From a virus (Duplodnaviria > Caudoviricetes), in IMG/VR virus record IMGVR_UViG_3300027759_000044: a DNA stretch of 64,000 nucleotides. One strand, given 5' to 3'. Positions within the stretch are counted from its first letter, which is position 1, and each line of letters begins with the position of its first letter. This document shows, one piece after another, positions 12,998 through 61,613 of the stretch. Below the pieces are notes generated by a model that was not told the DNA's origin, did no database searches, and worked only from the letters and a program-made list of their open reading frames with translations. Made by a program: the position numbers and the translations under genes.

Positions 12998-13540
12998 ATG
13001 GCACAAGATATAATGATTGATATGGAAACGCTTGACACAAGTCCTGATTGTGTTATACTAACTATTGGCGCAGTAAGATTTGATCCTAAATGTAGTGGAG
13101 TTGTTGAGCGATTAGAATTGCGACCTACAATTGAAGAACAAACAGAAATTTATAATAGGAGTATAAATGAAGATACATTACGATGGTGGAGTGAGCAAAG
13201 TCCTGAAGCTCTTGAAGAGGCTATGGGAGAAACTGGACGAATTCCGTTTAGAGAATGTATGGAGATACTTTATAAGTTTTGTTGGAATCGTCGTGCTGTG
13301 TGGAGTAATGGTGCATCATTTGACGTGGTTGTGGCAGAGTCGGCCTGGAGAAATCTTGAAATGCGAACCCCGTGGCCTTTTTATACAGTCAGAGATACTC
13401 GTACCTTGTATGAGATTGCCGGAGTCAAATTAAAAGATGGCGGGCATGTCACCAGTCATAAAGCAGTAGAAGATGCTGAACGACAAGCCATTGTTGTACA
13501 AAAAGCGTATACCAAATTAGGATTAAGTAATGAGAATTGA
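12998..13540 (+). CDS. dexA: DEDDh 3'-5' exonuclease, T4 DexA-like
   Basis: ExoI IDMET, LRWWSEQS, ExoII WSNGASFD, RDTRT, ExoIII HKAVEDA. Confidence 0.85.
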   Translation: MAQDIMIDMETLDTSPDCVILTIGAVRFDPKCSGVVERLELRPTIEEQTEIYNRSINEDTLRWWSEQSPEALEEAMGETGRIPFRECMEILYKFCWNRRAVWSNGASFDVVVAESAWRNLEMRTPWPFYTVRDTRTLYEIAGVKLKDGGHVTSHKAVEDAERQAIVVQKAYTKLGLSNEN

Positions 13541-14465: not shown

Positions 14466-14560
14466 TAAAATTATAGTCTCGGATATATTTATCACCCTTC
14501 CCAAACCATTAATAAAATAATATATATGGGAGACTAAATACACAATAGGAGATTACATTT

Positions 14561-15328: not shown

Positions 15329-15370
15329 ACAACCATAGTTGTTGATATCTTTGTTAGAGTATGTTATACT
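15329..15370 (+). promoter_or_regulatory. Class II (AACC-box) sigma70-type promoter for primase
   Basis: AACCATAG-N3-TTGATA 15342-15347, 17 nt, TATACT 15365-15370. Confidence 0.65.
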
Positions 15371-15377
15371 ACTACTA

Positions 15378-35215: not shown

Positions 35216-38200
35216 ATGGCATTAACATCTCCAGGCGTAGAAGTAACGATCATTGACCAGAGTCAATATCTTCCAGCCCCAACGAATTCCGTCCCACTTA
35301 TTCTATTAGCAACAGCGCAAAACAAAGCTGATGCATCTGGAACAGGTATAGCAGCCGCAACAACGGCCGCTAACGCAAATAAACTATTCCAAGTAACAAG
35401 TCAGAGAGACTTAGTAAACTTATATGGTACACCATTCTTCTATACAACGACAAATGGTACACCAATACAAGGTTATGAGTTAAATGAATATGGATTGTTA
35501 GCAGCCTATAGTACATTAGGTGTAACAAACCGTTGTTATGTTTTACGTGCTGATATTGACTTAGCTAGTTTAGTTGGTCAAACAGGCCGTCCAACTGCGA
35601 ATCCAGCTGCCGGAACATATTGGTTAGATACTACTACAAGTACATGGGGTATCTATGAATTTAATCAGACTACCGCACAATTTACACTACAAACTCCGAT
35701 TGTTATTACAAATGCGAGTGATTTAACTGCAGGTGTACCAAATAGTAGTATTGGAAATATTGGTGATTATGCTGTAGATGCTATTCAAATTACTACTTCA
35801 GCCGACGGAACTAATAGAACATATTGGTATAAAACAACATCTAATGTTTGGGAATTTTTAGGAAGCCCTGAATGGAGATCAGATGTCCCTGCTATTCAAG
35901 GCACAAATTCCAATCCAACATTAACAGCCGCTAATACATTTACAATTAATATGTCAGGTATAACAGGAGTAACAGCAACTATTACAGTTCCGGCATCAAC
36001 TAATAATAATGTAGCAGGTGTTGCTGCCGCAATTAATGCTTTAGGATGGACAGGATTATCTGCTGAAGTACGTAGTGGTAAATTATGTTTATTTAGCAAT
36101 CAACGTGTTACTTCCGGTACAACAAGTCTTGTTATCGCAGCCGGTACTGGAACAGTTCTTACTGATATAGGCATTACTGCAGGAACATATAATCAACCAG
36201 TACTCGGATATGGCACAAGTGCTCAAATGCCATTATGGGGTAGTAATCAAACTACTCCTAGACCAACAGGTTCAGTATGGATTAAAGTTGGTTCAGCCGG
36301 TACTGGATTAAATCCAGTATTATCTGTATTTAATGGTGCAACACAATCATTCCAAGCTAAAAATGTATCATTAGCAATAAGTGATTGGGTAGCAACTAAT
36401 AATTTAGATGCCACCGGTGGACAAGCTATTCCAGCTGGTACAATATATGGACAGTATGCATATAATCTTACAGGAACGAACCCAGGAAGTCCTGCTCCCT
36501 TTTACATGTGGGAAAGAATTGCAACTGGCCCAACAGTAATTACTGGTTCTAATACAACTCCAGATTTTACAGCTGGTTCATATTATATGAATGTGTATGT
36601 ATCAATACCCGGAAGTTCCACATTAAGTTCAGCTTATCAATTTACATTAGCAGACAATACTGATGCCACAGATTTTGTTACAGCATGGGCAGCCGCTAGT
36701 ATACCTTATACAACAGCAAGTGTAACTACTGATGGTGCTATACAATTAACACATACTACCGGTGGTGAAATTATATTAAATGATTTTGTAAATAGTGCAT
36801 TTACAAATATCAATGTATCTAATGGTTTAATAGCAGAAGCTGGATTTGAAATTAATACAACACCTGGTGTAAAGTACGGGCCTGCATCTGAGCCTGCATT
36901 TACTGGATTGGCACAAGGATCTAGTTCAGGAAGCGGAACTGGTGCTACATTTAATGTTAATATTTTACCGTCTGTTAATTATGCAATGGTAGGTGATGGA
37001 GTTCAAGCCGGTGGCGCCAGTTATGCTGTAGGTGATACTGTTACTATATTAGGTACTAGTTTAGGCGGAGCTACTCCTGCAAATGATCTAGTTGTTGAAA
37101 TAACATCAGTTTCCGCTGGAGCGGCAACATCATGTACATACGTATCAGGTACACCAGCATCAAACTTTACTACACAATTAAGTAACTGGGTTGAATTTAC
37201 ATATATTGCCAATGAAGGTGAGCCAAATATAGCTCCTGCTAATGATACAAATTGGTTCTACAGTGTAGTTGACCAAGTTGATATAATGATTAACTATAGT
37301 GGTGCATGGTATGGTTATGGTAATAGAGATTATGACAGTAGTGGTTTTCCGCTACCAAGTGGAACCAATGTAACTGATCCTAACGGACCATTGATTAGTG
37401 CTACTGCACCATCAGTACAAAGTGACGGAACTGTATTAGAATACGGTGATATATGGATTGACACTAGTGACCTAGAAAACTACCCAGTAATTAGTCGTTG
37501 GCAAAGTGTTAGTGGTACCGATCAGTGGGTATTAATTAATAATACTGACCAGACAAGTAGTACTGGTGTAGTATTTGCTGATGCACGTTGGTCAAGTGAT
37601 CAAGATACTATTAGTCCAGTAGATGATCCTATCCCAACAATTGTTAGTTTATTAACTAGTAATAATCTCGACTTAGATGCTCCGGATCCAACACTATATC
37701 CATCTGGTATGTTGTTATTCAACACACGCCGTAATGGTTATAATGTAAAACAATATAGATCCGACTATTTCAATAGCACAGATTTCCCAGATGAAACATT
37801 ACCTACATTTACTGATACTTGGGTAACAGTAAGCGGTAATCAAACAAATGGTAGTCCATATATGGGTCGTAAAGCACAACGTGCAATGGTTGTTCAATCA
37901 TTGAATGCTGCAATTGCTACTAATACAGCAATACGTGATGAAGATAATTTCTTTAATTTACTTGCAACACCTAACTATCCAGAACTACAACCCGGTATGA
38001 TTACATTGAATAATGATCGTGGTCAGACTGGTTATATTTTAGGTGATACGCCAATGAGATTACCAGATGATGCTACTGCAATTCAAGCATGGGCCAATAA
38101 TACAGCAGGTGCATCAAGTACAGGTGAAGAAGGTCTAGTAAACCGTGATACATATATGGGTCTATTCTATCCTAGTGGATTGGCAACTGACTTGCAAGGT

Positions 38201-38806
38201 AATCAAGTCGCAGTACCCCCATCATATATGATGTTGCGTACATTCTTGCGTAATGATACTATCAGTTATCCTTGGTTAGCGGCAGCAGGTACTCGTCGTG
38301 GTACAATTGACAACGCATTAAGTATTGGATATATTGATAGTGCTACCGGTGAGTTTATATCAATCAAGACTCGTTTGGGTATACGTGATGTATTGTATAT
38401 TAACTTCATAAACCCATTAGTATTCTTTACTGGTGTTGGATTATTGAACTACGGTAATAAGACCAGCTTTAATAGTTCAAGTGCATTAGATAGAACAAAC
38501 GTTGCTCGTTTAGTTGCTTATATTCGTAGACAATTAACATTAGCGGCAAGACCATTCGTTTTTGAACCTAATGATTCATTAACACGTAATCAAATTGCAG
38601 GTGTTGTACAAACATTGATGGTTGATTTAGTTGCTAAACGCGGTCTATATGATTATCTTGTAATTTGTGATGAAAGTAACAACACACCAGCAAGAATTGA
38701 TAGAAATGAACTTTGGATTGATGTTGCGGTTGAGCCTGTTAAGGCAGCTGAATTCATCTATATACCAGTTCGTATATTGAACACAGGCGAGCTTGGTGGA
38801 CAATAA
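35216..38806 (+). CDS. gp18: Contractile tail sheath protein with large insertion domains
   Basis: SPGVEV, LFQVTSQRDLVNLYG, YPWLAAAGTRRG, INPLV, LDRTNVARL, FVFEPND, AAEFIYI. Confidence 0.95.
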   Translation: MALTSPGVEVTIIDQSQYLPAPTNSVPLILLATAQNKADASGTGIAAATTAANANKLFQVTSQRDLVNLYGTPFFYTTTNGTPIQGYELNEYGLLAAYSTLGVTNRCYVLRADIDLASLVGQTGRPTANPAAGTYWLDTTTSTWGIYEFNQTTAQFTLQTPIVITNASDLTAGVPNSSIGNIGDYAVDAIQITTSADGTNRTYWYKTTSNVWEFLGSPEWRSDVPAIQGTNSNPTLTAANTFTINMSGITGVTATITVPASTNNNVAGVAAAINALGWTGLSAEVRSGKLCLFSNQRVTSGTTSLVIAAGTGTVLTDIGITAGTYNQPVLGYGTSAQMPLWGSNQTTPRPTGSVWIKVGSAGTGLNPVLSVFNGATQSFQAKNVSLAISDWVATNNLDATGGQAIPAGTIYGQYAYNLTGTNPGSPAPFYMWERIATGPTVITGSNTTPDFTAGSYYMNVYVSIPGSSTLSSAYQFTLADNTDATDFVTAWAAASIPYTTASVTTDGAIQLTHTTGGEIILNDFVNSAFTNINVSNGLIAEAGFEINTTPGVKYGPASEPAFTGLAQGSSSGSGTGATFNVNILPSVNYAMVGDGVQAGGASYAVGDTVTILGTSLGGATPANDLVVEITSVSAGAATSCTYVSGTPASNFTTQLSNWVEFTYIANEGEPNIAPANDTNWFYSVVDQVDIMINYSGAWYGYGNRDYDSSGFPLPSGTNVTDPNGPLISATAPSVQSDGTVLEYGDIWIDTSDLENYPVISRWQSVSGTDQWVLINNTDQTSSTGVVFADARWSSDQDTISPVDDPIPTIVSLLTSNNLDLDAPDPTLYPSGMLLFNTRRNGYNVKQYRSDYFNSTDFPDETLPTFTDTWVTVSGNQTNGSPYMGRKAQRAMVVQSLNAAIATNTAIRDEDNFFNLLATPNYPELQPGMITLNNDRGQTGYILGDTPMRLPDDATAIQAWANNTAGASSTGEEGLVNRDTYMGLFYPSGLATDLQGNQVAVPPSYMMLRTFLRNDTISYPWLAAAGTRRGTIDNALSIGYIDSATGEFISIKTRLGIRDVLYINFINPLVFFTGVGLLNYGNKTSFNSSSALDRTNVARLVAYIRRQLTLAARPFVFEPNDSLTRNQIAGVVQTLMVDLVAKRGLYDYLVICDESNNTPARIDRNELWIDVAVEPVKAAEFIYIPVRILNTGELGGQ

Positions 38807-42020: not shown

Positions 42021-42650
42021 ATGAAAAGCCTAAAAACATACATAACCGAAAGTCTTAAAAGTTACAAATATACTATAAAGATTGCTGGTGACGTGGATAA
42101 AAACTTTATAGATATGTTTAAGTACAATCTAAACAAGTTTGATCCAATCCGAATCAGTGATCCAACAAAGACTCCTATTCAGAAAGATCCATATGGATTT
42201 CCTAATTTAGCAAATCAATCAGTAACTATTATTAAAGCTGACTTTAGATATCCAGCTACTGAACCAATGATTCAGCAGATTGCTCAACTATTGGGCTATA
42301 ATGTTAACATGGTTCGTGTTATTACTACTGATTATAATGATAGCATTAATAGTGAAGCTGAAGGCTATGCTAATGAGATGAAAGATAGTCCGATACTTAC
42401 ACATGAAGAAATGGGTGAGCAGCCTGGTGCTAAAGAAGCTAATAAAGCATATGGTGATAGTTATTTAACTAGCATCAAAGACCAAATGAAGGGTTCAACA
42501 ATTGATATTCCTTATGCAGGTCAAAAGACTCCTAATGCGTTTGATCCGTTCAAACCATATTTGGATGATAAGAAATTAGGCGATAAGAGTCCAATGAGTA
42601 CTATTACTCGCCCAGCAAAGCCAGCAACTGGTGCAAGTGCATCTAAATAA
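42021..42650 (+). CDS. Hypothetical late protein (MKSLKTYITE N-terminus)
   Basis: Late motif at 41993; N-terminus resembles T4 internal-protein targeting peptides. Confidence 0.75.
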   Translation: MKSLKTYITESLKSYKYTIKIAGDVDKNFIDMFKYNLNKFDPIRISDPTKTPIQKDPYGFPNLANQSVTIIKADFRYPATEPMIQQIAQLLGYNVNMVRVITTDYNDSINSEAEGYANEMKDSPILTHEEMGEQPGAKEANKAYGDSYLTSIKDQMKGSTIDIPYAGQKTPNAFDPFKPYLDDKKLGDKSPMSTITRPAKPATGASASK

Positions 42651-42663
42651 AAGGAATATTAAA

Positions 42664-45063
42664 ATGAATATGTTAGATTTAATGAACAAAATGACCCAGC
42701 TTAGTGAAGCAAAAGAAAAAACTAAAACTGGATTAAAGCATACTGCTGAACCCGGTGGCTATGGTCGCAAAGATGACGAAGATGATGAAGGTCATAAAGT
42801 TAAAGCCGATGCCGTGAAAAAAGGAAAAGGTCGTCCTAAGAAAGATGCTGACGATTCAGGTGAAACTAAAAAGTATGACTTTAGTGCATTTGGTGTTAAG
42901 TCTGGCAAAGATGTTAAACTACCTAAACATGATAAAAAGAAAACTACAGTAGTTAAAGGTAAATCACAAAGTCATGCCGATAACAAAAAAGATGATGGCA
43001 CTGATCCTGAGACTAAAGATAAGAAAAAAAGTCTAAAAGAATATTTTGACGCATTAGACAGAGCGATAATGAATGAAGATGGTTATACAACTGCACCAAT
43101 GCCGGGCGCTGTTCAAGTTAAAGATGCGTCTGGTAAAGTTGTTGCAACTGCAAAAAACCCACAAGCTGCCGCAGCCTTTAAAAATGGTGATGTAACTCTT
43201 GGTAATCCAGAAGAAATGAATGAAGGTGACGGTGGTGCTATAGGTGATTTACCAAAACAAACAAGTCCAGAACAACCGTATCAAGTACCATTTGGTGCAG
43301 ATACTAATTTAGTATTTGCACGGGGTAAACGAAGTGGGTTACACTATGCTATGATGCGAGGCATGCTTAGTGATCCTTGGTACTTTAAATTTAACGGTAA
43401 AGTATATTCAATATCAGACAACGGTGATGGTATACCAAAACCAATTGAGCAAGGTATGGCAGAAGCCGATCAACCGTCTAATCAGATGGATATGGGTGCT
43501 GGATTGGGTGCTGGACGTAGCCAAGCAACATTTGAAAGTCGTGCTAAAGCTGATAACAAAGCTGAAAAAGCAGGTAAGAAAGTTACTAAAGACTTAGAAT
43601 ACGATATGAAACATAAAGGTAAAGATGACGAAAAAGCTTTGAAGGCTGGCAAGAAAGTTACCAAAGACATTGAGTATGATGAGAAACATAAAAAGACAGT
43701 AAAAGAAGCGGCTAAGCCTGACTTCCCGGATATTGACAATGACGGCAATAAAAAGGAAAAAATATCTCAGGCAGCACAAGACGCTAAAAGAGATAAAAAG
43801 AAAGTGAAAGAAGGTATGGAACATAAATTAAAAGCAGCTCGCCATACAGGTAAAGCACATGCACTATCTAAGCAAGGATATAACTGTGGTTATGATGATA
43901 TGGAAGAATCAAGACATTATCACGAAGGCTACAAAGAAGGTCTAGATGAGTGCTACGGTCAAATGCCAATTCAAGGTTATGTAGGCGAAGCAAATAACGA
44001 AGTAGCTGATATGGCTAGTTACGGAGCTCACACACCTGAATTAGACGAAATGGATAAAACTTCTTACATGAAGCAACAAGCAATTAAGACTCCGGGCAAT
44101 ACATTTAAGGCATTTGGTCAAACTTTCAAAGATAAAGAAGTAGTAGAAAGTCCATTCGCTTTTGAAGCATGGGAACAAGAATTGAATTCTATCCTAGAAG
44201 GCAAAGATGTTACTGAAGGTATGACCGTTTCTATCAGTAAAGGTCAACAAGGTACTCCTGATTCAGTAAGTGTTTCAGCACAAGATAGTGAAGCTGATCA
44301 ATTATTAAGTATCATTAAGCAATCAGGATTAGGTTTGTTTGGCGGTGATGATGCAGGTCAAACTCAGGGAACACAACCAATGACAGTTGATGGTGGTGAA
44401 GGCCCACAAGCTAATATTGAAGTAGTTGACGACCATGATGATATGTTATCATTAATTCGTAAGATGACTGGTCAAGGTCCTGCACAAGCAAACGGTGATT
44501 ATGAAGAAGAAGGTGGTCATGAAGGTCATGGCCATGAAGACGAAACGTGTGAAAGTTGCGGTGGCATGATGGAAGAAGGTCATTCATGTGGAGAAGCTGT
44601 TGAAGAAGATGAATCAATGGATCAGCGTGAATATGAAGTTGCCGAAGACCAGAGTGGTGGTGATGACTCTGAAGAATCCGATGAAGTTAATAGCGATGCG
44701 GTACGTGATGCCTCACTAGCAACAGCCGCTGGTCAAAGTTTTGCTAATACTGATGCCCCTATTAAAGAAGGTGGTGACGGCGGCGAAGCTTCAGATGCAG
44801 GTGCTGACGGTGTAGATATTGCTGATGTAGCTGATGAAACTGAAGAAGATTTAGAAGAATCATTAGCTAATGGTGCAGATGATACATTTGAGTCTGATAT
44901 TGACTTTATGACTAAAGTTATTTCAGGTGGTTTAAACAAGCAAAAATCTACTGGTCAAACAACAATTCCAGTTGTTTCTACACAAGTAAATCGTTTAGGT
45001 AATCCGATGAGAGAATCTAATGATTTGTTAAAGGATTGGCGCAAATTAAGTGGTATTAAGTAA
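42664..45063 (+). CDS. Large, charged, low-complexity putative internal head polyprotein
   Basis: Start re-called to MNMLD (RBS AAGGAA); many hydrophobic-x-E motifs; DIDNDG; C-terminal WRKLSGIK. Confidence 0.65.
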   Translation: MNMLDLMNKMTQLSEAKEKTKTGLKHTAEPGGYGRKDDEDDEGHKVKADAVKKGKGRPKKDADDSGETKKYDFSAFGVKSGKDVKLPKHDKKKTTVVKGKSQSHADNKKDDGTDPETKDKKKSLKEYFDALDRAIMNEDGYTTAPMPGAVQVKDASGKVVATAKNPQAAAAFKNGDVTLGNPEEMNEGDGGAIGDLPKQTSPEQPYQVPFGADTNLVFARGKRSGLHYAMMRGMLSDPWYFKFNGKVYSISDNGDGIPKPIEQGMAEADQPSNQMDMGAGLGAGRSQATFESRAKADNKAEKAGKKVTKDLEYDMKHKGKDDEKALKAGKKVTKDIEYDEKHKKTVKEAAKPDFPDIDNDGNKKEKISQAAQDAKRDKKKVKEGMEHKLKAARHTGKAHALSKQGYNCGYDDMEESRHYHEGYKEGLDECYGQMPIQGYVGEANNEVADMASYGAHTPELDEMDKTSYMKQQAIKTPGNTFKAFGQTFKDKEVVESPFAFEAWEQELNSILEGKDVTEGMTVSISKGQQGTPDSVSVSAQDSEADQLLSIIKQSGLGLFGGDDAGQTQGTQPMTVDGGEGPQANIEVVDDHDDMLSLIRKMTGQGPAQANGDYEEEGGHEGHGHEDETCESCGGMMEEGHSCGEAVEEDESMDQREYEVAEDQSGGDDSEESDEVNSDAVRDASLATAAGQSFANTDAPIKEGGDGGEASDAGADGVDIADVADETEEDLEESLANGADDTFESDIDFMTKVISGGLNKQKSTGQTTIPVVSTQVNRLGNPMRESNDLLKDWRKLSGIK

Positions 45064-45080
45064 TTAATATTACTCAAAAG

Positions 45081-45107
45081 TGCCCGGCTTTAGTCGGGTA
45101 TTTTTTT
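45081..45107 (+). terminator. Rho-independent terminator
   Basis: GCCCGGC-TTTA-GTCGGGT followed by T7. Confidence 0.85.
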
Positions 45108-45158
45108 GGCTATAGTGTTTGTAAAAAAACGATAAATACTAAATAAGGTGATATAGAT

Positions 45159-47582
45159 ATGGCTCAACAAAATATAGATTTCGGTACCTTCCCGGATGAT
45201 CCAGATGCAGATGCTATTAGAACGGCATTTTCAAAAGTACAGAACAATTTTACTGAATTGTTTGCTACAACTACTGCCGGTAGTGTAGTTTCAGTAAACG
45301 GGGGTGCAGGTATTTCTGTTAACACCCCTACAGGTAATGTAATTGTTACTGCCAACCTTGCACAAGTAGTAGTTAGTACAAGTTCATTAAGAATTGGTCA
45401 AAATAGTAACGGTGGAACAACTGCTGTCATTAATAGTTCTATTCAAACATTAGTAATTGATATTAATCCAGCAAATGTTTTCTCAGGTAACTTTTCTGGT
45501 GTAAGTGGTGCATTAGCAAATCTTAATGGAACATTAACATCAAATTCTAACAGTCAACCTAATATTACAAGTGTTGGTACATTGACTAGTTTATCTGTAA
45601 TAGGAAATATTTCTTCAGGCAATGCTAATTTAGGTAACGTAGTAATAGCTAATTATTTCACCGGAACATTAACAACTGCCGCTCAACCTAATATTACAAG
45701 TGTAGGTAATTTAAGTTCATTAAATGTTACTGGAAATATTAGATCATCATCCTATATAGGTGGAAATATAGCTACAACCGGGGCAAATGCGATATTTATA
45801 GGTGATGGCTATTTGTTAAGTAATTTAACTATTACTGCTGGTAGCTCTATTATTAATGGTAATAGTAATGTAGTAATTCAGGCAAATGGTAACGTAACTA
45901 CCAGTGTAGCTGGTAATAATGATATACTAACTATTACTGGTACTGGTGCTAATATATCAGGTACGGCTAACGTAACTGGTAATATTAGTGGCGGTAATGC
46001 TAATTTAGGTAATGCGGTAACTGCTAATTATTTTATTGGTAACCTTTACGGTAATGCCAATACAGCCGGCACAGTAACAACTGCGGCACAATCAAATATT
46101 ACAAGTGTCGGGACATTAACTAATTTAGGTGTATCAGGAAATGTTATAAGTGGTAATGTGTATGCTAATAGTGGTTTAATTAAAGCACAATATCTATCAG
46201 GAGATGGAAGTAACCTTACTAATTTAAGTGCCGGAATAACTCTTGTTAACGGAAACAGTAACGTCAGTATTCCAACTATCAATGGCAATATTAATATGAG
46301 TGCTGTTGGTAATGCTAATGTAGTAGTTGTGACAGGAACAGGAGTTAATGTATCCGGAACTATAAATGCCACTGGTACTATTACTGGAAATTTCAGTGGT
46401 AATGTTATAACGGCATCACAAGGTAATATTACTAGTTTGGGTAACTTAACTAGTTTAACCGTTAACGGAATAGCTAATTTAGGTGCAGTGGGTAATGTTA
46501 AAATTACGGGAGGCTCCAGCAACGGTTATTTATTTACTGATGGTGCCGGTAATTTAACATTTGGATCAATTGTTAATACTCCTCCCGGTGGAGCAAATAA
46601 TGATGTACAATTTAAAGATGGCGGAACATATCAAGGTAGTTCTAACTTTACATTTAATCCAACATCAAATCTAGTATCAATCACTGGAAACTTATCTGTA
46701 ACCGGTAATGCTAACGTTGGTAATTTAAATGCTACACTATTAACCGGTACACTAACAACAAATAATCAACCTAATATAAAACAAGTTGGTACTTTGGATT
46801 ATTTAATTATTAATACGACTGGATCTCTTGGAATGGGATCTGGTAATATTACTGCAGGAAATATTAGTCTTATTGCTGCCGGTAGTGCTAATTTAGGTAA
46901 TTCAGCAACTGCTAATTACTTTATTGGTAATTTTTACGGAACAGCTAATACAGCAACTAGCGCAACAAATGCTTCAGCCTTATTACAAAATACTTCTACT
47001 GCTACTACAGTTTATCCTATATTTACAACATCATCCGCTAATGGTAATTCATCAGCAGTATTCAATTCATCAATAAGTGCTAACTTAAGTAATGCGTCTA
47101 TTACAGCTACTACATTTGTTGGTGCACTTAGCGGGGCAGCCACAAGTGCAACTACAGCAGGTACTGTAACAACTGCTGCACAAGGCAACATTACAAGTGT
47201 TGGCACATTAACAAGCATGACTTCAAGTGGTAATGTTCAGGGTGCTAATCTTATTGCAACCAGCTATCATATTCGTTCAGTTAATGCGGCAGTTTCAGCA
47301 GCCGGCACAGTTCAAGGAAATGCTACAGCATTAACTACTGAATTTAATAGGGTATCAACTGTTGTTAGTGGAGCCGGTGTTGTGTTACCAACAGCAGTAG
47401 CTGGTATGGCAATATCTATTGTCAATTCTAGTGCTAACTCATTGTTAGTATATCCAGCAACAGGCGCGGCAATTAACTCATTAGCAACAAATGCTGGTTA
47501 TAGTCATGTAACATTAGCAACATTACAATACATAGCAATATCAAGCACACAATGGTATACAGTAGGTGCTTCATACGCATAA
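45159..47582 (+). CDS. Baseplate-anchored fibre protein (gp9/gp10-like N-terminus)
   Basis: IDFG..PDD..ADAIRTAFSKVQNNFTEL anchor motif; six Q(P/S/G)NI(T/K)(S/Q)(V/L)G.L repeats. Confidence 0.7.
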   Translation: MAQQNIDFGTFPDDPDADAIRTAFSKVQNNFTELFATTTAGSVVSVNGGAGISVNTPTGNVIVTANLAQVVVSTSSLRIGQNSNGGTTAVINSSIQTLVIDINPANVFSGNFSGVSGALANLNGTLTSNSNSQPNITSVGTLTSLSVIGNISSGNANLGNVVIANYFTGTLTTAAQPNITSVGNLSSLNVTGNIRSSSYIGGNIATTGANAIFIGDGYLLSNLTITAGSSIINGNSNVVIQANGNVTTSVAGNNDILTITGTGANISGTANVTGNISGGNANLGNAVTANYFIGNLYGNANTAGTVTTAAQSNITSVGTLTNLGVSGNVISGNVYANSGLIKAQYLSGDGSNLTNLSAGITLVNGNSNVSIPTINGNINMSAVGNANVVVVTGTGVNVSGTINATGTITGNFSGNVITASQGNITSLGNLTSLTVNGIANLGAVGNVKITGGSSNGYLFTDGAGNLTFGSIVNTPPGGANNDVQFKDGGTYQGSSNFTFNPTSNLVSITGNLSVTGNANVGNLNATLLTGTLTTNNQPNIKQVGTLDYLIINTTGSLGMGSGNITAGNISLIAAGSANLGNSATANYFIGNFYGTANTATSATNASALLQNTSTATTVYPIFTTSSANGNSSAVFNSSISANLSNASITATTFVGALSGAATSATTAGTVTTAAQGNITSVGTLTSMTSSGNVQGANLIATSYHIRSVNAAVSAAGTVQGNATALTTEFNRVSTVVSGAGVVLPTAVAGMAISIVNSSANSLLVYPATGAAINSLATNAGYSHVTLATLQYIAISSTQWYTVGASYA

Positions 47583-47591
47583 GGAAAACAA

Positions 47592-48215
47592 ATGGTAACA
47601 ATAGAATTATTAACATCAATGTGTCCAAAAACAAGACGCTCTACGTTAGAGGGTTTTGTTGAGCCACTAAACACGGTGGCAGAATATTATGAGATGTTTG
47701 AAAATCCAAAACGTTGTGCTGGATTCTTAGCACAGATAGCACACGAAAGTGGTGGATTTAATGCTGTAGTTGAAAACTTAAACTATAGTGCAAAAGGATT
47801 GATGGGCACATTCAAAAAGTATTTCCCTAACGAAGAACTAGCAAAACAATATGAACGCAAACCAGAGATGATTGCTAATCGTGTATATGCTAATCGTATG
47901 AAGAATGGTGATGAGAATAGCGGTGATGGCTTTAGATTCAGAGGGCGTGGATTAATTCAATTGACTGGTCGTGATAACTATACAAGATTTGCTGAAGCAT
48001 TAGATATGAGTATTGAAGATACAGTTAGATACTTAGAGACACCAAATGGCGCTGTTGCTAGTGCTGGATGGTTTTGGGATAATAATAAACTAAACCAGTT
48101 CTGTGATAAAGATGACTTTGTTACATTAACAAAGCGTATCAATGGCGGAACTATTGGGTTAGAAGATAGAAAACATCACTATCATTTGGCATTAGAACAT
48201 TTAGGCGCACATTAA
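47592..48215 (+). CDS. Glycoside hydrolase family 19 endolysin
   Basis: FLAQIAHESG, FRGRGLIQLTGRDNY, AGWFW, RINGG. Confidence 0.93.
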   Translation: MVTIELLTSMCPKTRRSTLEGFVEPLNTVAEYYEMFENPKRCAGFLAQIAHESGGFNAVVENLNYSAKGLMGTFKKYFPNEELAKQYERKPEMIANRVYANRMKNGDENSGDGFRFRGRGLIQLTGRDNYTRFAEALDMSIEDTVRYLETPNGAVASAGWFWDNNKLNQFCDKDDFVTLTKRINGGTIGLEDRKHHYHLALEHLGAH

Positions 48216-48216
48216 T

Positions 48217-50796
48217 ATGGCACAACCAATTTGGAATACAACTGCTGGTTCTATTGGAACATTTCCTGCTACTATAATAATGGCAACGCAGTTATCAGCA
48301 TCACCTGTATCTCCCGCTACAACAATAACATATACATTATTAAGCGGTACATTGCCACCGGGTACAACTATTACCATTGGTGGATTAATAAGCGGAACCC
48401 CCACGTTAGTTACAGTAGACACTACTACTACTTTTACAATTAGAGCAACTGATAATTTATCTAACATACGTGATAGAACATTCTCAATAACTATATCAGG
48501 AACAGCTATTCCTGAATTCACTACACCGGCGGGAAGTGTTTTATCTACATTAGATAGTGTATGGATTGAATTACCAATTGAATATTCAAATCCCGATAAT
48601 ACTAATCAGATTGTAGTAGAAGTTCAAGAAGGTATTTTACCACCCGGTTTAGAAATTAATCCAGCTGGTGTAATTAGAGGATATGCTAACCCACCGACAG
48701 TTAGTGTTACATTAACTGAAGTAGAAACAAATGCTACTCTAACTGATGGTACTAGTTATTTGATAACATGTACAAGTACCACTCAATTCACAATAGGAAG
48801 ACCAGTAGTATTTACTTCTACTGTATTTGGTGGAATACAAAACGGAGAAACATATTATATTAAAACTATTGATAGTTCTACTACCTTTAGTATAACCTCT
48901 ACACAAAATGGTGATGTGTTTCCATTAACATCAGCATCTGGATCAATGACTGTTACACTCCCTGCTACATCATTTGGTCAACCTACTATTCGCACATATT
49001 CATTTATCCTTAGGTTATCAAGTAATTTAGGCGGTGATACTGCTACATATTCAATTACAGTAGTAAATCAAAATACTCCAGTAAGTCAAGGCGGCCCTGG
49101 ATATACTATTAATTCACGTATACCCACTATACTTAATACTAGACCTAAAACATTTATAATTACTGATAATGACCCATACAGTGGTTATTATATATTACCT
49201 CCAATAAGCCCTACTGTTAATGCTTTCATAGGTACAATACGTAGTGGAGAATACTTTACATTTAAAATAATAGGTTACGATTTTGACGGTAGTTCACTAA
49301 CATATGATTATGTTAATTTGCCAGTAGAGTTAACCGGAGATACTGAAACAGGGTGGATTACCGGAACACCTACATTAAATTCAACTGGTCTAAGTACATT
49401 TTCTTTTGCTGTAAATGTATATAAAACAGATAGTAGTAGTATAGGCACAACTAATTTTAATTTTAGTTATAATTTAAGTAATGAAATTACTGATACTATA
49501 ATATGGTCAACCCCTTCAGATTTAGGAACTATATTTAATAGTTCAATAAGTACAGTAAATGTTTTTGCTGTAGCCGATACTGAATTATCATACAGAATAA
49601 CTAGTGGATCATTACCTCCTAATTTGTTATTATTATCTAATGGAGAAATAACAGGTAAAGTAGCAGATCAACCCACAGACACTTTATTAGAACAAAATAC
49701 TGAAACAGTATTTACCTTTACTATTCAAGCATATTCTGCTTTATTTCCTGCGGTTCAATCTACTAAAACTTTTACAATAACGGTATTACAAGAATATACT
49801 CAACCAACAGATACACTATATATTAAGGCAGCACCTAGTATCAATGATAGAAATATTATTAATACTCTATTAACAAGTGAAACATTAATTCCTGAAGAAA
49901 TAGTGTATAGACCCAATGATATATATTTTGGTAAAGCAACTAGTATAGTATATGAGCATGCATATGGTATATATGCAAGTGAGATTGATGAATATTTGGC
50001 GGCTGTAACTCAAAATCATTATTGGAGAAATATTACTTTAGGTGAAATAAAAACTGCCGTAGCAAAGAATAGTTTGGGAGAAATAATTTACGAAGTGGTA
50101 TATAGTGAAGTCATTGATAACTTAGTTAATCCTGCAGGAATAAGTATTCAACAAGAAATTATTTGGCCAAGACCAATAGATTTAGGATTAGGTCCATGGT
50201 ATACTAGTATTACCGATATCCATGCTAGTTATGAAACTGTGTTAGGACAAGAGTATTATACTAGTTTAACACCTGGTTTTGCACAAACACTGTATCCAAA
50301 TAGTTTATTTAATATGCGTAATCGTGTAAGTCAAGTTGTAGGACAAGAATTTGATAGTCGTTTACTACCATTATGGATGACTAGTCAACAAGAAAACGGC
50401 GGTACATTGGGTTACACACAAGCTTGGGTAATATGTTATACTAAACCTGGAATTATTGTTGATGGTCAACTATTAACTTATGCTGAATTTAAAGCAACCG
50501 GGTTAACAAAGACACGTACTGAGGGTGGCGTAATTATAACAGACTATTTTAGTTCTGCGGAAACTATTAAAAACAATATTAACAATAATTGGCCATATAC
50601 ATTGAATCAAATCAACTTTAGAATTGATAGATTTAGTGTAGATAAGAGCGAAACCTATAATTATGATAAAAAATTAAATCCACCTGCTTGGACAGGATTA
50701 CCGAGTGCAACTCCTGTACCTAATCCAATAGACAGTGAAAATTTCTATGTATTGTTCCCTCGTCAAACAATTTTACCAGACGAATCTCAATACTAA
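48217..50796 (+). CDS. Virion structural protein with repeated Ig-like (He_PIG-type) domains
   Basis: Repeated SGTLPPG...G.I.G.P units (GTLPPG, GILPPG, GSLPPN). Confidence 0.75.
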   Translation: MAQPIWNTTAGSIGTFPATIIMATQLSASPVSPATTITYTLLSGTLPPGTTITIGGLISGTPTLVTVDTTTTFTIRATDNLSNIRDRTFSITISGTAIPEFTTPAGSVLSTLDSVWIELPIEYSNPDNTNQIVVEVQEGILPPGLEINPAGVIRGYANPPTVSVTLTEVETNATLTDGTSYLITCTSTTQFTIGRPVVFTSTVFGGIQNGETYYIKTIDSSTTFSITSTQNGDVFPLTSASGSMTVTLPATSFGQPTIRTYSFILRLSSNLGGDTATYSITVVNQNTPVSQGGPGYTINSRIPTILNTRPKTFIITDNDPYSGYYILPPISPTVNAFIGTIRSGEYFTFKIIGYDFDGSSLTYDYVNLPVELTGDTETGWITGTPTLNSTGLSTFSFAVNVYKTDSSSIGTTNFNFSYNLSNEITDTIIWSTPSDLGTIFNSSISTVNVFAVADTELSYRITSGSLPPNLLLLSNGEITGKVADQPTDTLLEQNTETVFTFTIQAYSALFPAVQSTKTFTITVLQEYTQPTDTLYIKAAPSINDRNIINTLLTSETLIPEEIVYRPNDIYFGKATSIVYEHAYGIYASEIDEYLAAVTQNHYWRNITLGEIKTAVAKNSLGEIIYEVVYSEVIDNLVNPAGISIQQEIIWPRPIDLGLGPWYTSITDIHASYETVLGQEYYTSLTPGFAQTLYPNSLFNMRNRVSQVVGQEFDSRLLPLWMTSQQENGGTLGYTQAWVICYTKPGIIVDGQLLTYAEFKATGLTKTRTEGGVIITDYFSSAETIKNNINNNWPYTLNQINFRIDRFSVDKSETYNYDKKLNPPAWTGLPSATPVPNPIDSENFYVLFPRQTILPDESQY

Positions 50797-52944: not shown

Positions 52945-52986
52945 TTAACCAAATATATTGTATTTTAGTAACAGTTATGTTATAAT
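52945..52986 (+). promoter_or_regulatory. Class II (AACC-box) promoter for the DnaE-N / groES / gp44 operon
   Basis: TTAACCAAAT-ATA-TTGTAT 52958-52963, 17 nt, TATAAT 52981-52986. Confidence 0.7.
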
Positions 52987-52992
52987 ATACAA

Positions 52993-53499
52993 ATGAAAAC
53001 AGATAAGTATGGTCAATTAATTTACAATCAGCACGATTTGTGCGAATTGTTTCTACAAGATCCTACACGTACTATCACTAACGCACTTATAGATAACCCA
53101 ATTGAATTTAATGGATTTCTCTCATTAGAGAATTTACCCAATCTAAAACAATATGACAATTTAAATCTTTCCATAGAAGAATTTGATAAACAAAATCAAT
53201 CAAAATGGCATATGCCCAAAGAATATTATGAGTTTGATATTGCTAAATGGGTATTAGATCAATGCAAAAATGAAGCTGAGTTACAACGTGCCGGAGATGA
53301 ATTAATTAAGTTTCAAGAACGTAATATGTTTGTATTATTACAGTATTTAAAATACTTAGTAGATACTATGCGTAAAAATAATGTTGTATGGGGTGTAGGG
53401 CGTGGAAGTTCAGTGGCAAGTTTTGTATTGTTTTTAATAGGAATACATAGAATAAATAGTTTGTACTATGACTTATCAATAGATGAGTTTTTAAAATAA
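52993..53499 (+). CDS. dnaE: Miniature DnaE (Pol III alpha-like), GRGS half
   Basis: RAGDELIKF...LQYLKYLVD...WGVGRGSSVASFVLFLIGIHRINSLYYDLSIDEFLK* aligns with DnaE RLETEL...[35 protein letters not shown]. Confidence 0.85.
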   Translation: MKTDKYGQLIYNQHDLCELFLQDPTRTITNALIDNPIEFNGFLSLENLPNLKQYDNLNLSIEEFDKQNQSKWHMPKEYYEFDIAKWVLDQCKNEAELQRAGDELIKFQERNMFVLLQYLKYLVDTMRKNNVVWGVGRGSSVASFVLFLIGIHRINSLYYDLSIDEFLK

Positions 53500-53509
53500 G
53501 GAGAATATT

Positions 53510-53860
53510 ATGGCTAATTATAAAACAGCAATGGGTAAAGTTGTTGATATGTCGGCACTAGCTGCAAAGAATGAAAAAACTAGAGCAGTAGGGAACATGA
53601 AGGTTAATGCACGGGGTGATACCATTGATGCTCAAGGTCGTATTATAAAATCTGCGACAGTTAAAGCAAATGATTCATATAACAGAACTGTGGGTAATCG
53701 TTCTGCTCAACCAGTAAGACCTACCACAAAGCCATCGGCCCCAGCTAAACCAAAAATTGATTTTAGTGAATTAACTGAAATAGAACGTGAGATTGAAGAA
53801 TCTTACATAGATGATTTAGAAGTGGAACACATTAAAGCACAGGAACTTAAAAAGAAATGA
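53510..53860 (+). CDS. Hypothetical protein
   Basis: RBS AAGGAG; 116 aa. Confidence 0.8.
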   Translation: MANYKTAMGKVVDMSALAAKNEKTRAVGNMKVNARGDTIDAQGRIIKSATVKANDSYNRTVGNRSAQPVRPTTKPSAPAKPKIDFSELTEIEREIEESYIDDLEVEHIKAQELKKK

Positions 53861-54234
53861 ACCAATACAGTAAACCGGCATTTAGTCACACCAAAGCAGA
53901 TAAACTGACATTCTTTAGAGATCATGTCATTGTATCTGAGATGCATTTTGATGAACGTATTAGTACCGGAGGTATAATTCTACTAGATGATGATAAGAAA
54001 AGTTCAGGTATTCGTCCTCGTTGGGCAAAGATTTATGGTTTGGGTCCAGAACAGGATGATCCTCAACTAGAGATCGGTAAATGGGTTCTAGTTAGTCACG
54101 GTCGTTGGACAAGGGGTATTACTGTTGAGACACCTTCGGGTAAACAAACATTGCGTAAAGTTGATCCCGGTGATATACTATTAGTATCGGATGAGCCGAT
54201 GGAAGATGAAACAATGAGTGATAAGGTATTTTAA
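53857..54234 (+). CDS. groES: GroES-like co-chaperonin
   Basis: DHVIV...STGGIIL mobile loop...GLGP...IGKWVL; analogous to T4 gp31. Confidence 0.8.
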   Translation: MNQYSKPAFSHTKADKLTFFRDHVIVSEMHFDERISTGGIILLDDDKKSSGIRPRWAKIYGLGPEQDDPQLEIGKWVLVSHGRWTRGITVETPSGKQTLRKVDPGDILLVSDEPMEDETMSDKVF

Positions 54235-54533
54235 TGATAAATTGGTTTAGACAAAAATTACAAAACTTTTTGTATCCACAATATCCACAAGATAGTGAGT
54301 TAGTGGAATCAAAACCACATACCAGAAGAGGTGTTCTCGTTAGAGGGTCAAGCTTTGATAGTAGAGGAATGAGTTTTACTATTCATCAAGCTAGTGGAGG
54401 TTATGTTTTAGAATACTCATCTTATGACGAAAAGACAGATAGACCTAATCACAATCTACATATTATTCCTTCTGATCAGGATATGGGTCAGGGTATCGCA
54501 CACATCATCACATTAGAAATGTTAAGAAAATGA
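54234..54533 (+). CDS. Hypothetical protein
   Basis: TAATG and ATGA coupling. Confidence 0.75.
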   Translation: MINWFRQKLQNFLYPQYPQDSELVESKPHTRRGVLVRGSSFDSRGMSFTIHQASGGYVLEYSSYDEKTDRPNHNLHIIPSDQDMGQGIAHIITLEMLRK

Positions 54534-55459
54534 AAAATAGCCTTTGGGTAGAAAAGTATCGTCCGCAAACAGTAGCAGATTATGTGTTTGTAAACGAAAG
54601 ACAAAAAAATCAAGTAGAGGGTTGGATTAAAGAGGGTAGTATTCCTCATCTTTTACTATCAGGTGATCCGGGTACAGGTAAGACAACTCTTGCTAAAGTA
54701 TTGATACATGAACTTGGTGTTAGTGAATATGATGTATTGGAGATCAATGCTTCACGTGAGAATAGCGTAGATGTTGTACGTAACAAAATTGTTAACTTTG
54801 TACAAACAATGCCTTTCGGTAACTTCAAAGTTGTATTACTAGATGAAGCAGATTATTTGACACCAGCTGGCCAAGCGGCATTGCGTAACGATATGGAAGC
54901 ATATCATATGACAGCACGATTTATTCTAACCTGTAACTATCAGCATAGAATTATCCCAGCATTGAAATCACGATGCCATGAGTTTCACATTACAAAAACA
55001 GATAAAACAGAGTTCACTGCGAGAGCGGCAACTGTGTTAGTAAGTGAAAACGTTGAGTTTGAATTAGATGATTTGGATAGTTATGTTCGTGCCACATATC
55101 CAGACTTGCGTAAATGTTTGAATCAACTACAAGTTAACAGTAGTACAGGAAAACTATTGTCATCACAAACTCAAAGTAGTGGCGAAGATGAGTTATTGGT
55201 AGAGGCAACTACTTTGTTTAAAGCAGGGAAGATCCTTGAAGGTAGACAACAGTTATTACAATATATTGCATTGTATCCTACACGCATTGAAGATACGTAT
55301 GCATGGATGTATCAGAATTTAGATTTATGGGGTAAGTCTAATGAAAAACGTGATGCTAGTATTATTGTTATTAGAAATGGTTTAGCTAATCTAAGTATGG
55401 TAGGAATTCCTGAAATATCACTGGCAGCAACATTAGTAGAATTGACAGGTGATTTATGA
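54530..55459 (+). CDS. gp44: Clamp loader large subunit (RFC/gp44)
   Basis: LWVEKYRPQT, GDPGTGKTT, EINASRE, LLDEAD, SRC motif. Confidence 0.95.
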   Translation: MKNSLWVEKYRPQTVADYVFVNERQKNQVEGWIKEGSIPHLLLSGDPGTGKTTLAKVLIHELGVSEYDVLEINASRENSVDVVRNKIVNFVQTMPFGNFKVVLLDEADYLTPAGQAALRNDMEAYHMTARFILTCNYQHRIIPALKSRCHEFHITKTDKTEFTARAATVLVSENVEFELDDLDSYVRATYPDLRKCLNQLQVNSSTGKLLSSQTQSSGEDELLVEATTLFKAGKILEGRQQLLQYIALYPTRIEDTYAWMYQNLDLWGKSNEKRDASIIVIRNGLANLSMVGIPEISLAATLVELTGDL

Positions 55460-55728
55460 GATATTTATTGATTACATTTATGAGAAAGCCCGGCGGGCAA
55501 ATTGATGAACAAGTTGCTGTATCTAAAAAGGTTAAGCCAAGTGACTTACAGACCTGTAATGTTATATTAGATTATGCTAAGAAAAAAGTAGATAAATGTG
55601 TAATTGAAGGTAAAGTATTAGATAGAGAGTGGGATAAGATGCATGAATATTATTTACGAATTTATCCTAATCTAATTTCACAACTTGAAAAAGAAGCAAG
55701 TATTACTGAAAAAACAAATGGGGCCTAA
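55456..55728 (+). CDS. Hypothetical protein
   Basis: ATGA overlap with gp44. Confidence 0.75.
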   Translation: MRYLLITFMRKPGGQIDEQVAVSKKVKPSDLQTCNVILDYAKKKVDKCVIEGKVLDREWDKMHEYYLRIYPNLISQLEKEASITEKTNGA

Positions 55729-59336: not shown

Positions 59337-61613
59337 GTGAATAATTCACCCGAAATCGAAGCCATCATTGAACAGGCTATTGAGTTGTCTAAACAACGTA
59401 AACATCAATATTGTACAATTGAACATTTGTTATTATCATTAATAACACATACACCATTTAAAAAATGTTTAGATAGTTTTGGATGTGAAACCTCAACTAT
59501 GATTCAAGAGGTTACTTCATACGTTGATAGCTTACATGCTATTGTAGCAAAGATAGACCCTAACCAAGAAGTTCAACCACGTAAAACTAACAGTTTAGAA
59601 CGTGTAATGAATCGTTCTGTTACTCAGGTACTGTTCACTGGACGTAGACAAGTAACTACTATTGACTTATATCTCTCTATCGCTAGTGAGGGTAATAGTC
59701 ATGCTCACTATTTCTTATTGAAATATGGGATTAATAAGAATGATTTTGTCGCACATTGGCAAAAAACATATAAAGGTTCAGAATTCACTAGTAAACTTTC
59801 TGAAGGTCAAGCAGATGAGATTCTTGAAGAATATACTACTAACTTAACTAATCTTGCACGACAAGGTAAACTTGAACCATTGATTGGTCGTAGTACTGAA
59901 CTAGACGATATTGTTAATGTATTGGCTAAACGATTCAAATCAAATGTATTGATGGTGGGTGATCCGGGTGTGGGTAAAACAGCTATTGCTGAAGGGCTTG
60001 CACAAATGATTGCTGATAAAACAGTACCTGAATTCTTACACGGACATGAACTATATTCACTTGAGATTGGTGCCTTACTTGCTGGATCTAAATATCGTGG
60101 TGACTTTGAAGAAAAAGTTAAAGCTGTCCTTGATGCACTAAACACTAAGAAAAAATCAGTATTGTTTATTGACGAAGCACATACTATGAAAGGTAGTGGT
60201 TCATCTACTAGCGGAAGTATTGATTTTGCTAATATGATTAAACCTGCAATTACTAAAGGTACACTTAAAGTTATTGCTAGCACCACGTGGGAAGAATACT
60301 ACGATTCATTTGAGAAGGATCGTGCTTTAATGCGTAGATTCTATCGTGTATCAATTGATGAACCTTCACATGATAGTACAATTCGTATTCTTAAAGGATT
60401 AAGTTCAAGGTTGAATGACTTCCATGAAGTTGAAATTAGTGATGAAGCAGTAACTGCGGCAGTTGACGCATCAGTACGTTACATTCACGACCGTAAGAAT
60501 CCAGACAAAAGTATTGACTTATTAGATGCGGCATGCGCTAAACAACGTGTTGCGGGTAATAAAGGTGCAATCATTACTAAAGACTTGATCCATGAACAAG
60601 TTGAACGATTCACCGGTGTTCCTGCTGATAAACTTAATGGTGATAACTACGACCGTATCAATAGCCTTGAAGTTAATATCAAAGGTAAACTATACGGACA
60701 AGATGAAACAGTTGAACAAGTGTTAGAACGTATCTATGTTAGCTTTGCTGGCATTGGTAATGAACATAAACCTACAGCAAGTTTCATCTTCTTAGGCCCA
60801 ACTGGTACAGGTAAAACAGAATTAGCTAAGTTGTTAAGTAAAAACCTTGATATGACATTACTCAAATATGATATGAGTGAATATAGTGAAAAACACTCAG
60901 TATCAAGTTTGATTGGTCCTCCCCCTGGCTATGTTGGATTTGGTGATAGTCAAGTAGGTGGTGGTCGTCTAATCAATGACTTAAGCAAGAATCCACATAG
61001 TATCTTACTATTTGACGAAGTTGAAAAGGCTCACCCTGATATCTTTAATATCTTCTTACAGATGTTAGATGAAGGTCGTATTACTGGTAGTAACGGCAAA
61101 GAAGTTAACTGTAAGAATACTATTATTATTATGACAAGTAACTTGGGTAGTAGTGATAGTGAGAAAAACAATATTGGATTTGGTAGTCAAGAAAAGACAG
61201 GTGAGGATGACAAAGCAATTAAAGAGTTCTTCAAACCAGAATTTAGAAATCGTGTTGATTTGATTTGTAAATTTGGTAAACTTGATTTCTTAGCAATTAA
61301 GAAAATTGTTGTTAAGTTTACGGAAGAATTGAAGAAATCATTATTTGATAAGCACAATATTAGTTTGAATCTAAGTGAGCCAGTAGTTGATTATTTGGGT
61401 GAGAAGGGCTATGATAAGAAAATGGGTGCTCGTCCATTAAGCCGTAAGATTGACGAATTGATTCGTGTACCATTGAGCAAGAAAGTACTATTTGAGCGTA
61501 TTAAAAATGCTACAGTAACATGTGTACTAGTGGATGATAAGATTGAGTTCAATGTAGTACAGAAATCAATAGCGAAAGTAGGAGAAGATGGGATTATTGA
61601 AATTAGCAACTGA
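59337..61613 (+). CDS. clpA: ClpA-like AAA+ unfoldase
   Basis: Clp-N domain, GDPGVGKT, FIDEAH, GPTGTGKT, FDEVEKAH, IGF loop (NIGFG), GARPL. Confidence 0.93.
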   Translation: MNNSPEIEAIIEQAIELSKQRKHQYCTIEHLLLSLITHTPFKKCLDSFGCETSTMIQEVTSYVDSLHAIVAKIDPNQEVQPRKTNSLERVMNRSVTQVLFTGRRQVTTIDLYLSIASEGNSHAHYFLLKYGINKNDFVAHWQKTYKGSEFTSKLSEGQADEILEEYTTNLTNLARQGKLEPLIGRSTELDDIVNVLAKRFKSNVLMVGDPGVGKTAIAEGLAQMIADKTVPEFLHGHELYSLEIGALLAGSKYRGDFEEKVKAVLDALNTKKKSVLFIDEAHTMKGSGSSTSGSIDFANMIKPAITKGTLKVIASTTWEEYYDSFEKDRALMRRFYRVSIDEPSHDSTIRILKGLSSRLNDFHEVEISDEAVTAAVDASVRYIHDRKNPDKSIDLLDAACAKQRVAGNKGAIITKDLIHEQVERFTGVPADKLNGDNYDRINSLEVNIKGKLYGQDETVEQVLERIYVSFAGIGNEHKPTASFIFLGPTGTGKTELAKLLSKNLDMTLLKYDMSEYSEKHSVSSLIGPPPGYVGFGDSQVGGGRLINDLSKNPHSILLFDEVEKAHPDIFNIFLQMLDEGRITGSNGKEVNCKNTIIIMTSNLGSSDSEKNNIGFGSQEKTGEDDKAIKEFFKPEFRNRVDLICKFGKLDFLAIKKIVVKFTEELKKSLFDKHNISLNLSEPVVDYLGEKGYDKKMGARPLSRKIDELIRVPLSKKVLFERIKNATVTCVLVDDKIEFNVVQKSIAKVGEDGIIEISN

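Follow-up and report, generated by a model that had tools for sequence, protein, structure and literature searches.

A split minimal DNA polymerase III alpha-like enzyme, probably assembled from the products of two distant genes, in a freshwater jumbo phage

Two short open reading frames that lie 39 kb apart in the DNA of an uncultured freshwater jumbo myovirus most probably encode the two subunits of a minimal DNA polymerase III alpha-like enzyme that the jumbo phages of group 2.2, which resemble RaK2 and PA5oct, carry in split form. We put the probability of this reading at roughly 80%. The window, that is, the whole stretch of 64,000 nucleotides that was analysed, is a fragment of the phage genome and contains genes for a clamp loader, a primase, a helicase and a tail sheath. 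The two reading frames, referred to here as half A and half B, are located as follows.

52993-53499, plus strand: half A, 168 aa, the N-terminal palm segment of a minimal family C polymerase, identified by Pfam, PHROG and structural matches
13530-14093, plus strand: half B, 187 aa, the catalytic half of a minimal family C polymerase, identified by PHROG, profile and structural matches

A preliminary description, made from the letters of the window, had pointed to this pair, and its observation proved correct in each detail that could be checked. The implied novelty did not hold. The split mini Pol III is real but already published: section 3.4.1 and Fig. 3b of Iyer, Anantharaman, Krishnan, Burroughs & Aravind (2021, Viruses 13:63; PMC7824862) describe a minimal Pol III alpha that group 2.2 jumbo phages encode in two pieces, and half A had been seen in the 2017 CBB paper as a 172-aa 'truncated' Pol III alpha (PMC5259590). 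The 2018 Atu_ph07 paper (PMC6102473) predicted both Pol III alpha and epsilon. According to that section of the 2021 paper, the enzyme sits beside a family B polymerase, its suggested role is the synthesis of one strand or repair, and the mini Pol III is proposed as a picture of the ancestral Pol III module. Both that system and the pair in the window consist of two stand-alone proteins from distant genes, an NTP-binding part and a Mg2+/template-binding part, with no other Pol III domains in either, and as far as the section goes nothing essential differs. The window proteins belong to the same protein families as those of PA5oct, RaK2 and Atu_ph07, as found with PHROG 11127, PHROG 11778 and tblastn. 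The fused clade, the exact position of the break and the half-A promoter, which are presented below, are not mentioned in the section. A literature search found no biochemical or expression work on any member of the split mini Pol III family.

The phage collection had nothing that matched 8 kb around half A in a blastn search, which leaves the window known at the protein level only. Between 36 and 98% of sampled words of the window were found in 19 freshwater, lake or aquatic DNA runs, which come from 12 studies and of which two possibly represent the source sample. Around both halves the window is syntenic with PA5oct, and homologues in PA5oct (gp288 and gp220), RaK2, 121Q, GAP32, CBB, Atu_ph07 and SCTP-2 are 36-49% identical to the window proteins. 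Three other regions of the window deserve a remark in their own right. A 758-aa FtsH-like ATP-dependent protease is encoded at 59337-61613 on the plus strand (PHROG 4871, E 5e-234) and is reminiscent of an FtsH-like protein described as an unusual feature of phages MIJ3 and PA5oct. The tail sheath at 35216-38806 (plus strand) is unusually long, with 1196 aa, and its match to PHROG 10581 (E 3e-207) covers residues 649-1191 only, so that its N-terminal half has no assignment. Three big reading frames of 810, 807 and 859 aa occupy 42631-50796 on the plus strand and had no PHROG match at E 1e-5.

Half A was assigned by sequence families and by fold. Positions 17-94 of the 260 in Pfam PF07733 (DNA_pol3_alpha) match residues 90-167 with an E value of 2.3e-8, above the curated cut-off, and PHROG 11127 ('DNA polymerase', 171 positions) matches residues 53-168, the C-terminal 116 aa, with an E value of 2.9e-39. 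In an AlphaFold2 model built on a 54-row alignment (pLDDT 88.5), residues 65/77-168 superimposed on E. coli Pol III alpha 276/280-393 with Z scores of 9.2-9.9 and an rmsd of 2.6-2.9 Å over 93-97 residues. The same model gave a Z score of 11.3 with M. tuberculosis DnaE1 308-413 and of 7.2-10.5 with PolC 824-965. For the N-terminal approximately 64 aa ahead of the palm, the structure comparison gave no counterpart, and the Pfam search of the two halves gave no PF02811 match for a PHP domain. The GxGRGS motif occupies residues 134-139. The preliminary description had relied on this motif, which turned out to be invariant in 54 diverse homologues; in these sequences, which are 51-91% identical to the window protein, G134, G136-R-G-S-S140 and S143 do not vary. 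The protein ends in GVGRGSSVASFVLFLIGIHRINSLYYDLSIDEFLK (SIDEFLK-stop in the translation of the reading frame).

Half B starts with MRIDSDIDIDFGDRD (MRIDSDIDIDF in the translation) and carries D6, D8 and D10 of the DIDID motif, K69-x-D71 with the third Asp, R139-P140-x-K142 and F167-K-K-x-H171. PHROG 11778 ('DNA polymerase', 197 positions) matches it end to end with an E value of 3.5e-56; there was no Pfam match. As a single-sequence query against the PDB half B returned noise only, so a profile was needed. The profile matched E. coli DnaE with an E value of 3.4e-5 in three collinear pieces, namely residues 399-418 (MPDFDVDF), 539-641 (VKFDFLGL ... ALFRPG) and 739-769 (GYGFNKSHSAAYAL). All 187 residues of the half B model (80-row alignment, pLDDT 96.2) were superimposed on E. 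coli Pol III alpha 397-776 with a Z score of 8.6. Taq DnaE 459-833 and PolC 968-1291 both reached a Z score of 9.4, with an rmsd of 3.4-3.5 Å over 182 aligned residues. The top 14 entries of the structure comparison were all family C polymerases, and the next chain, an unrelated one, scored 2.8. Foldseek returned weak E values (best 4.4e-3), yet its top 12 rows were all Pol III alpha. Among 80 half-B sequences that are 30-55% identical, D6, D8, K69, D71 and P140 are invariant, and D10, H37, G40, R139, K142, K168 and H171 are kept in 90% or more. In the profile alignment the E. coli counterparts of the conserved residues are D401, D403, K553, D555, the RPG motif and the KSH motif.

Then, where is the polymerase broken? 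The half A model ends at E. coli residue 393 and the half B model starts at 397, so on these models the break lies between residues 393 and 397 of E. coli DnaE, in a short linker. This linker connects the helices after the GS loop with the strand that carries two metal-binding aspartates. Ordinary DnaE fragments read FERFL-NPERISLP-DFDIDF at the same spot, with a linker of 8 residues. The preliminary description had aligned half A with DnaE through GRGS and noted that the frame stops at IDEFLK, just before the DxD, which the Pfam match and the superposition ending at residue 393 confirmed. Its further statement that the DxD-bearing strand opens the frame at 13530 was borne out by the start of half B, where DIDIDF falls at the equivalent of E. 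coli 397, and the separation of 39 kb was verified from the coordinates of the two frames. It had also raised the question of whether the break point is fixed. By the sequence comparison, it is fixed across more than 100 loci: half A ends in EF[LI][KR](D)-stop in 79 of 80 IMG/VR loci, and in six isolates its end is 0-2 residues from the EF[LI][KR] position. Half B starts 3-16 residues ahead of D[IV]DID in the isolates and 1-18 residues ahead of the match in full-length representatives.

The two halves travel together. Matches in the phage collection were found in 98 records for half A (tblastn E values of 1e-17 to 5e-30) and 96 records for half B (1e-25 to 1e-39), with the same host genera for both. 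RaK2, SCTP-2, Atu_ph07, Phosso and Vibrio 2.275.O, the five isolate genomes that were searched whole, each contained both halves. When IMG/VR contigs were found through one half, the other half was present in 4 of 5 and in 12 of 26; these 12 take in all six contigs of at least 150 kb and the two records with a completeness of 90% or more, and the contigs without a second half are fragments with an estimated completeness of 15-49%. The co-occurrence that the preliminary description had proposed to look for was thus seen in all complete or large relatives that were checked. Co-phylogeny, its other proposed check, was seen as well: over 23 genomes, the pairwise distances of half A correlate with those of half B (r = 0.95), a value not reached in any of 5000 permutations, and since any two core genes would be expected to give the like, this correlation shows joint vertical descent only. 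The distance between the two genes is mostly about 40 kb and ranges from 30 to 224 kb across the family.

To what extent can the two chains form one enzyme? Complex prediction of A with B gave a score of 0.92 (three runs, 0.92-0.93), compared with 0.00 for the best control; the mark set for this score is reached by 58 of 80 solved complexes and by 2 of 110 mismatched pairs. The runs shared at least 97% of contacts, and the partner pLDDT was 92. The closest predicted contacts join residues 133-135 of A (WGV, in the strand before GRGS) with residues 9-11 of B (IDF of DIDIDF), and further contacts join A 65-73 with B 43-46 and B 65-68. In the model the two chains build a single beta-sheet, as expected of a Pol-beta-type core cut between strands 1 and 2. 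The halves of a split gene can pass such a prediction by their likeness to solved structures, in this case through a memory of DnaE. The interaction that the preliminary description had proposed passes the controls in the model, and what the prediction itself shows is that A and B can be threaded onto DnaE rather than that they meet in a cell, where they would probably bind. GRGS is on half A, and the DxD and the third Asp are on half B, which agrees with the earlier claim that neither half has a full active site alone. Taken together, the motifs, the co-occurrence and the complex model lend good computational support to the obligate heterodimer that had been suggested.

These features suggest a mechanism in which half A would provide the first strand of the Pol-beta-type nucleotidyltransferase core, its GRGS loop would hold the triphosphate of the nucleotide to be added, and the helices after this loop would also come from half A. 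Half B would provide the second strand, which bears the two metal-binding aspartates (DIDID), as well as the strand with the third aspartate (KLD) and a remnant of the fingers (RPGK and FKKSH). The chains would associate non-covalently, without an intein, by completing one beta-sheet, and with one shared sheet neither chain would have an active site alone. The assembled product of A and B may polymerise DNA.

The genes around the two halves belong to different parts of the replication machinery. In the window, they are arranged as follows.

53510..55728, plus strand: downstream of half A, a 116-aa reading frame, a GroES/gp31-like gene (53857-54234), a 99-aa reading frame, a gp44-like clamp-loader ATPase (54530-55459) and a 90-aa reading frame (Pfam AAA/Rad17/Gp44_lid; PHROG 931/3188)
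12998..13540, plus strand: Rv2179c-like DEDD 3'-5' exonuclease (Pfam PF16473, E 9.3e-32), with an 11-nt overlap between its end and the half-B start
14085-14543, minus strand: reading frame of PHROG 11637 (function not assigned), which overlaps the 3' end of half B and is found in the same place in every relative examined, including the fused loci
14561-15328, plus strand: PHROG 14467-like structural protein
15339-16355, plus strand: gp61-like primase
16336-17775, plus strand: DnaB/gp41-like helicase

The genes downstream of half A are separated by 10-nt gaps or overlap, and half A together with the genes at 53510..55728 probably forms one transcription unit, judged by this spacing. The preliminary description had placed half A at the head of an operon with groES and gp44, a proposal in line with the tight spacing and with the synteny to PA5oct. 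The distance from half A to a gp44-like clamp loader downstream is 0.7-3.3 kb in each of the seven genomes compared, and that from half B to a gp61-like primase downstream, where a gp41/DnaB-like helicase is also found, is 1.2-3.0 kb. With A beside the clamp loader and B beside the primase and helicase, each half is anchored in a different replication module. This constant pairing is an addition of the present analysis. In the window's clade, 10 of 16 loci have the DEDD exonuclease directly ahead of half B and three more have it nearby, behind inserts of 0.3-1.3 kb, and it might conceivably act as a proofreading partner of half B. None of the isolate genomes shows this adjacency. As a family-wide partner the exonuclease was rejected: in RaK2 and Phosso the two genes are not adjacent, and SCTP-2, Atu_ph07 and Vibrio 2.275.O gave no match to PF16473.

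The pair was compared with DnaE and PolC (PDB 2hnh, 3e0d and 3f2b). The Pol-beta-type palm, the GS motif, the three carboxylates, the RPG and KSH motifs and the order of these elements are all shared. Whereas DnaE is a single chain of about 1160 aa, the phage pair amounts to 355 aa in two chains. The thumb is reduced to about 33 residues from about 120, the region of E. coli 642-738 is cut to about 10 residues, and the pair ends about 15 residues after KSH, with nothing past E. coli residue ~776. Unlike DnaE, it lacks the PHP domain, the clamp-binding motif, the HhH, the OB and the tau-binding domain. With the thumb, most of the fingers, the HhH, the beta-clamp-binding, OB and PHP elements absent, the enzyme would have no obvious grip on primer-template DNA, and it might act on a substrate other than DNA. 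The loss of the thumb and of all DNA-duplex- and clamp-binding domains, along with the small total size and the family B replicase that relatives already possess, would also suit a heterodimer working as a non-replicative nucleotidyltransferase of the Pol-beta fold, one that might tail RNA or primers, produce a nucleotide signal or act as a terminal transferase. We consider such an activity unlikely. The RPG and KSH motifs, which contact dNTP and template in DnaE, are kept and nearly invariant, the fold match continues through the fingers core to E. coli residue 776, and the linkage to the primase-helicase and clamp-loader genes is conserved.

A split DNA polymerase, the reading that we prefer, would probably share its genome with another one. 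In each of the five long relatives there is a gene for a family B polymerase, about 903 aa in length; the window itself contains none, and PolB is known from the relatives only. The product of A and B may serve as an accessory polymerase beside this family B replicase, in repair or in one step of lagging-strand synthesis. In B. subtilis, DnaE extends primers and then hands off to PolC, and Pol alpha likewise hands off to Pol delta. By analogy, the two-chain mini Pol III might be the primer-extending polymerase of the PolB replisome, which would extend the RNA primer by a few nucleotides before the hand-off to the family B replicase, and its two transcription units would tie assembly to both modules. 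We offer this more specific role as a speculation that is rather improbable as it stands.

The preliminary description had also asked whether fused versions exist. They do, and they are joined exactly at the break. In the best 150 half-B representatives, a single protein, P0284 (375 aa), has its match far from the start, at residues 190-372. Its N-terminal part is half A, and the junction reads ...KEFIK-DNKEGIYNIA-DFDID..., with a linker of 10 residues. Further fused clusters, P0391 and P0392 (376 aa, 78-81% identical), come from separate assemblies, so the fusion is real. The fused genes lie on contigs of about 25% G+C.

L194:1066-2193: fused gene of P0284
L195:519-1649: fused gene of P0392

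The fused locus is of the half-B type and resembles that of the window in having the overlapping reverse frame of PHROG 11637 and then a structural protein of PHROG 14467. When 96 half-B sequences were placed in a tree, the fused proteins formed a clade (support 100) within a 12-row clade (support 98) beside nine stand-alone half B sequences, deep in the family. This placement, in a tree that is midpoint-rooted only, points to a fusion that is secondary and not ancestral. An origin from simply adjacent genes in the nearest stand-alone relative, P0397, was rejected because the reading frame directly upstream of P0397 is not a half A. P0404 and P0405, considered as intermediates between the split and fused forms, were rejected as truncated ordinary bacterial DnaE. 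The rare, naturally fused clade is a further addition of the present analysis.

If the two chains form one enzyme, why are their genes kept apart? The preliminary description had given half A a promoter of its own, and a promoter-like site does stand in the 48-nt gap upstream of half A.

52958..52986, plus strand: promoter-like site TTGTAT-17 nt-TATAAT, with 6 nt from the end of the -10 hexamer to the ATG and without a Shine-Dalgarno sequence

The claim stands in part. The site in the window is below the threshold of the promoter scan, and a simple scan omits it; its support comes from conservation. An equivalent site in the same register, with 9 or more of 12 positions matched, is present in 50 of 78 relatives (loci L102-L181), 43 of which have the 6-nt gap. 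Shuffled sequences averaged 1.7, with 6 at most, and the next 60 nt upstream gave 0. The exact motif TATAATATAC showed no enrichment within the window. A Shine-Dalgarno-like tetramer before half A was found in 1 of 78 loci. Half A therefore likely has its own sigma-70-type promoter in the window's clade, as far as sequence conservation can tell, and a -10 element that ends 6 nt before an ATG with no Shine-Dalgarno sequence makes a leaderless half-A mRNA likely. The suggestion of a conserved promoter placed for a leaderless mRNA is also an addition of this work. More distant relatives have no half-A promoter of this type, and half A directly follows the upstream reading frame. In one lake metatranscriptome run, contigs cover the genes around half A and not half A itself, which is uninformative either way.

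Such a promoter could mean that the split is regulatory, with the halves made from differently timed units and the activity switched on only when both are present, as the preliminary description had ventured. Half B is translationally coupled to its upstream genes in another array 39 kb off, and the separation of the two genes is kept across the family, which would both be in accord with a switch, as would the promoter in the window's clade. We hold a switch to be doubtful, nevertheless. Both halves lie amid replication genes, with no hint of different timing, the distant relatives manage without the half-A promoter, and the existence of the fused clade means that separate expression is dispensable for the enzyme.

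The families of both halves are abundant in metagenomes, which the present analysis adds to the earlier accounts. At 90% identity there are at least 7616 clusters for half A and at least 7986 for half B, and half B still forms 364 clusters at 50% identity; the sources are freshwater, marine, soil and gut samples. These numbers bear on the idea that the halves are functionless, decaying remnants of a captured dnaE, an idea for which one may cite the word 'truncated' that the first authors to see half A used for it (PMC5259590). The frames are intact, the catalytic residues invariant and the ends fixed, and synteny is conserved across proteobacterial phages of soil, sea, salterns and guts. Families so large and so conserved exclude decay for practical purposes.

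Other broken polymerase genes are of a different kind. Wu and co-workers are said to have found in 1998 that cyanobacterial DnaE (Synechocystis DnaE-N and DnaE-C) is broken just before CFNKSH and ligated by a split intein. Cyanobacteria and the phages thus both make a family C polymerase from two distant genes, whereas the phage break lies before the DxD strand and FKKSH is inside half B. The preliminary description had drawn this distinction, and it held: FKKSH is within half B and Pfam found no Hint domain, so with no intein in the phage halves their association must be non-covalent. A joining of the two halves by a split intein after translation, for which the cyanobacterial precedent and the PolB inteins of the related phages MIJ3 and SCTP-2 (PMC6892783) could be invoked, is refuted by the absence of any Hint or intein domain from the Pfam results for both frames and by frame boundaries (A stops 0-2 residues after EFLK, B starts 3-16 before DIDID) that leave no room for intein pieces of about 100 aa and about 35 aa. 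The 'split DNA polymerase' of MIJ3 is its intein-bearing PolB and a separate matter. The family C polymerase of Thomasclavelia phage TR-TP2 (L198, PQ571310.1 19368-23993) is likewise encoded by two reading frames. They are adjacent there, with an HNH homing-endonuclease gene between them (gp30 / HNH gp31 / gp32), and the polymerase is full-sized; its first piece, with 551 aa, extends beyond the GS motif by about 160 residues, which puts the break at another point than in the mini Pol III. Bacteroides phage DAC19 was rejected as a second split family since its DnaE is of full length. Among the DnaE genes of DAC19 and TR-TP2 that were checked, there was no second family broken at the same point.

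The split mini Pol III family is very common among environmental jumbo phages. With about 355 aa in total, it would represent, judged from its sequences, the smallest natural catalytic core of a bacterial replicase, supplied in two pieces that need assembly. The natural 375-aa fused form is a ready single-chain construct for asking whether so little protein copies DNA, and it could also show what the mini Pol III does beside a family B replicase.
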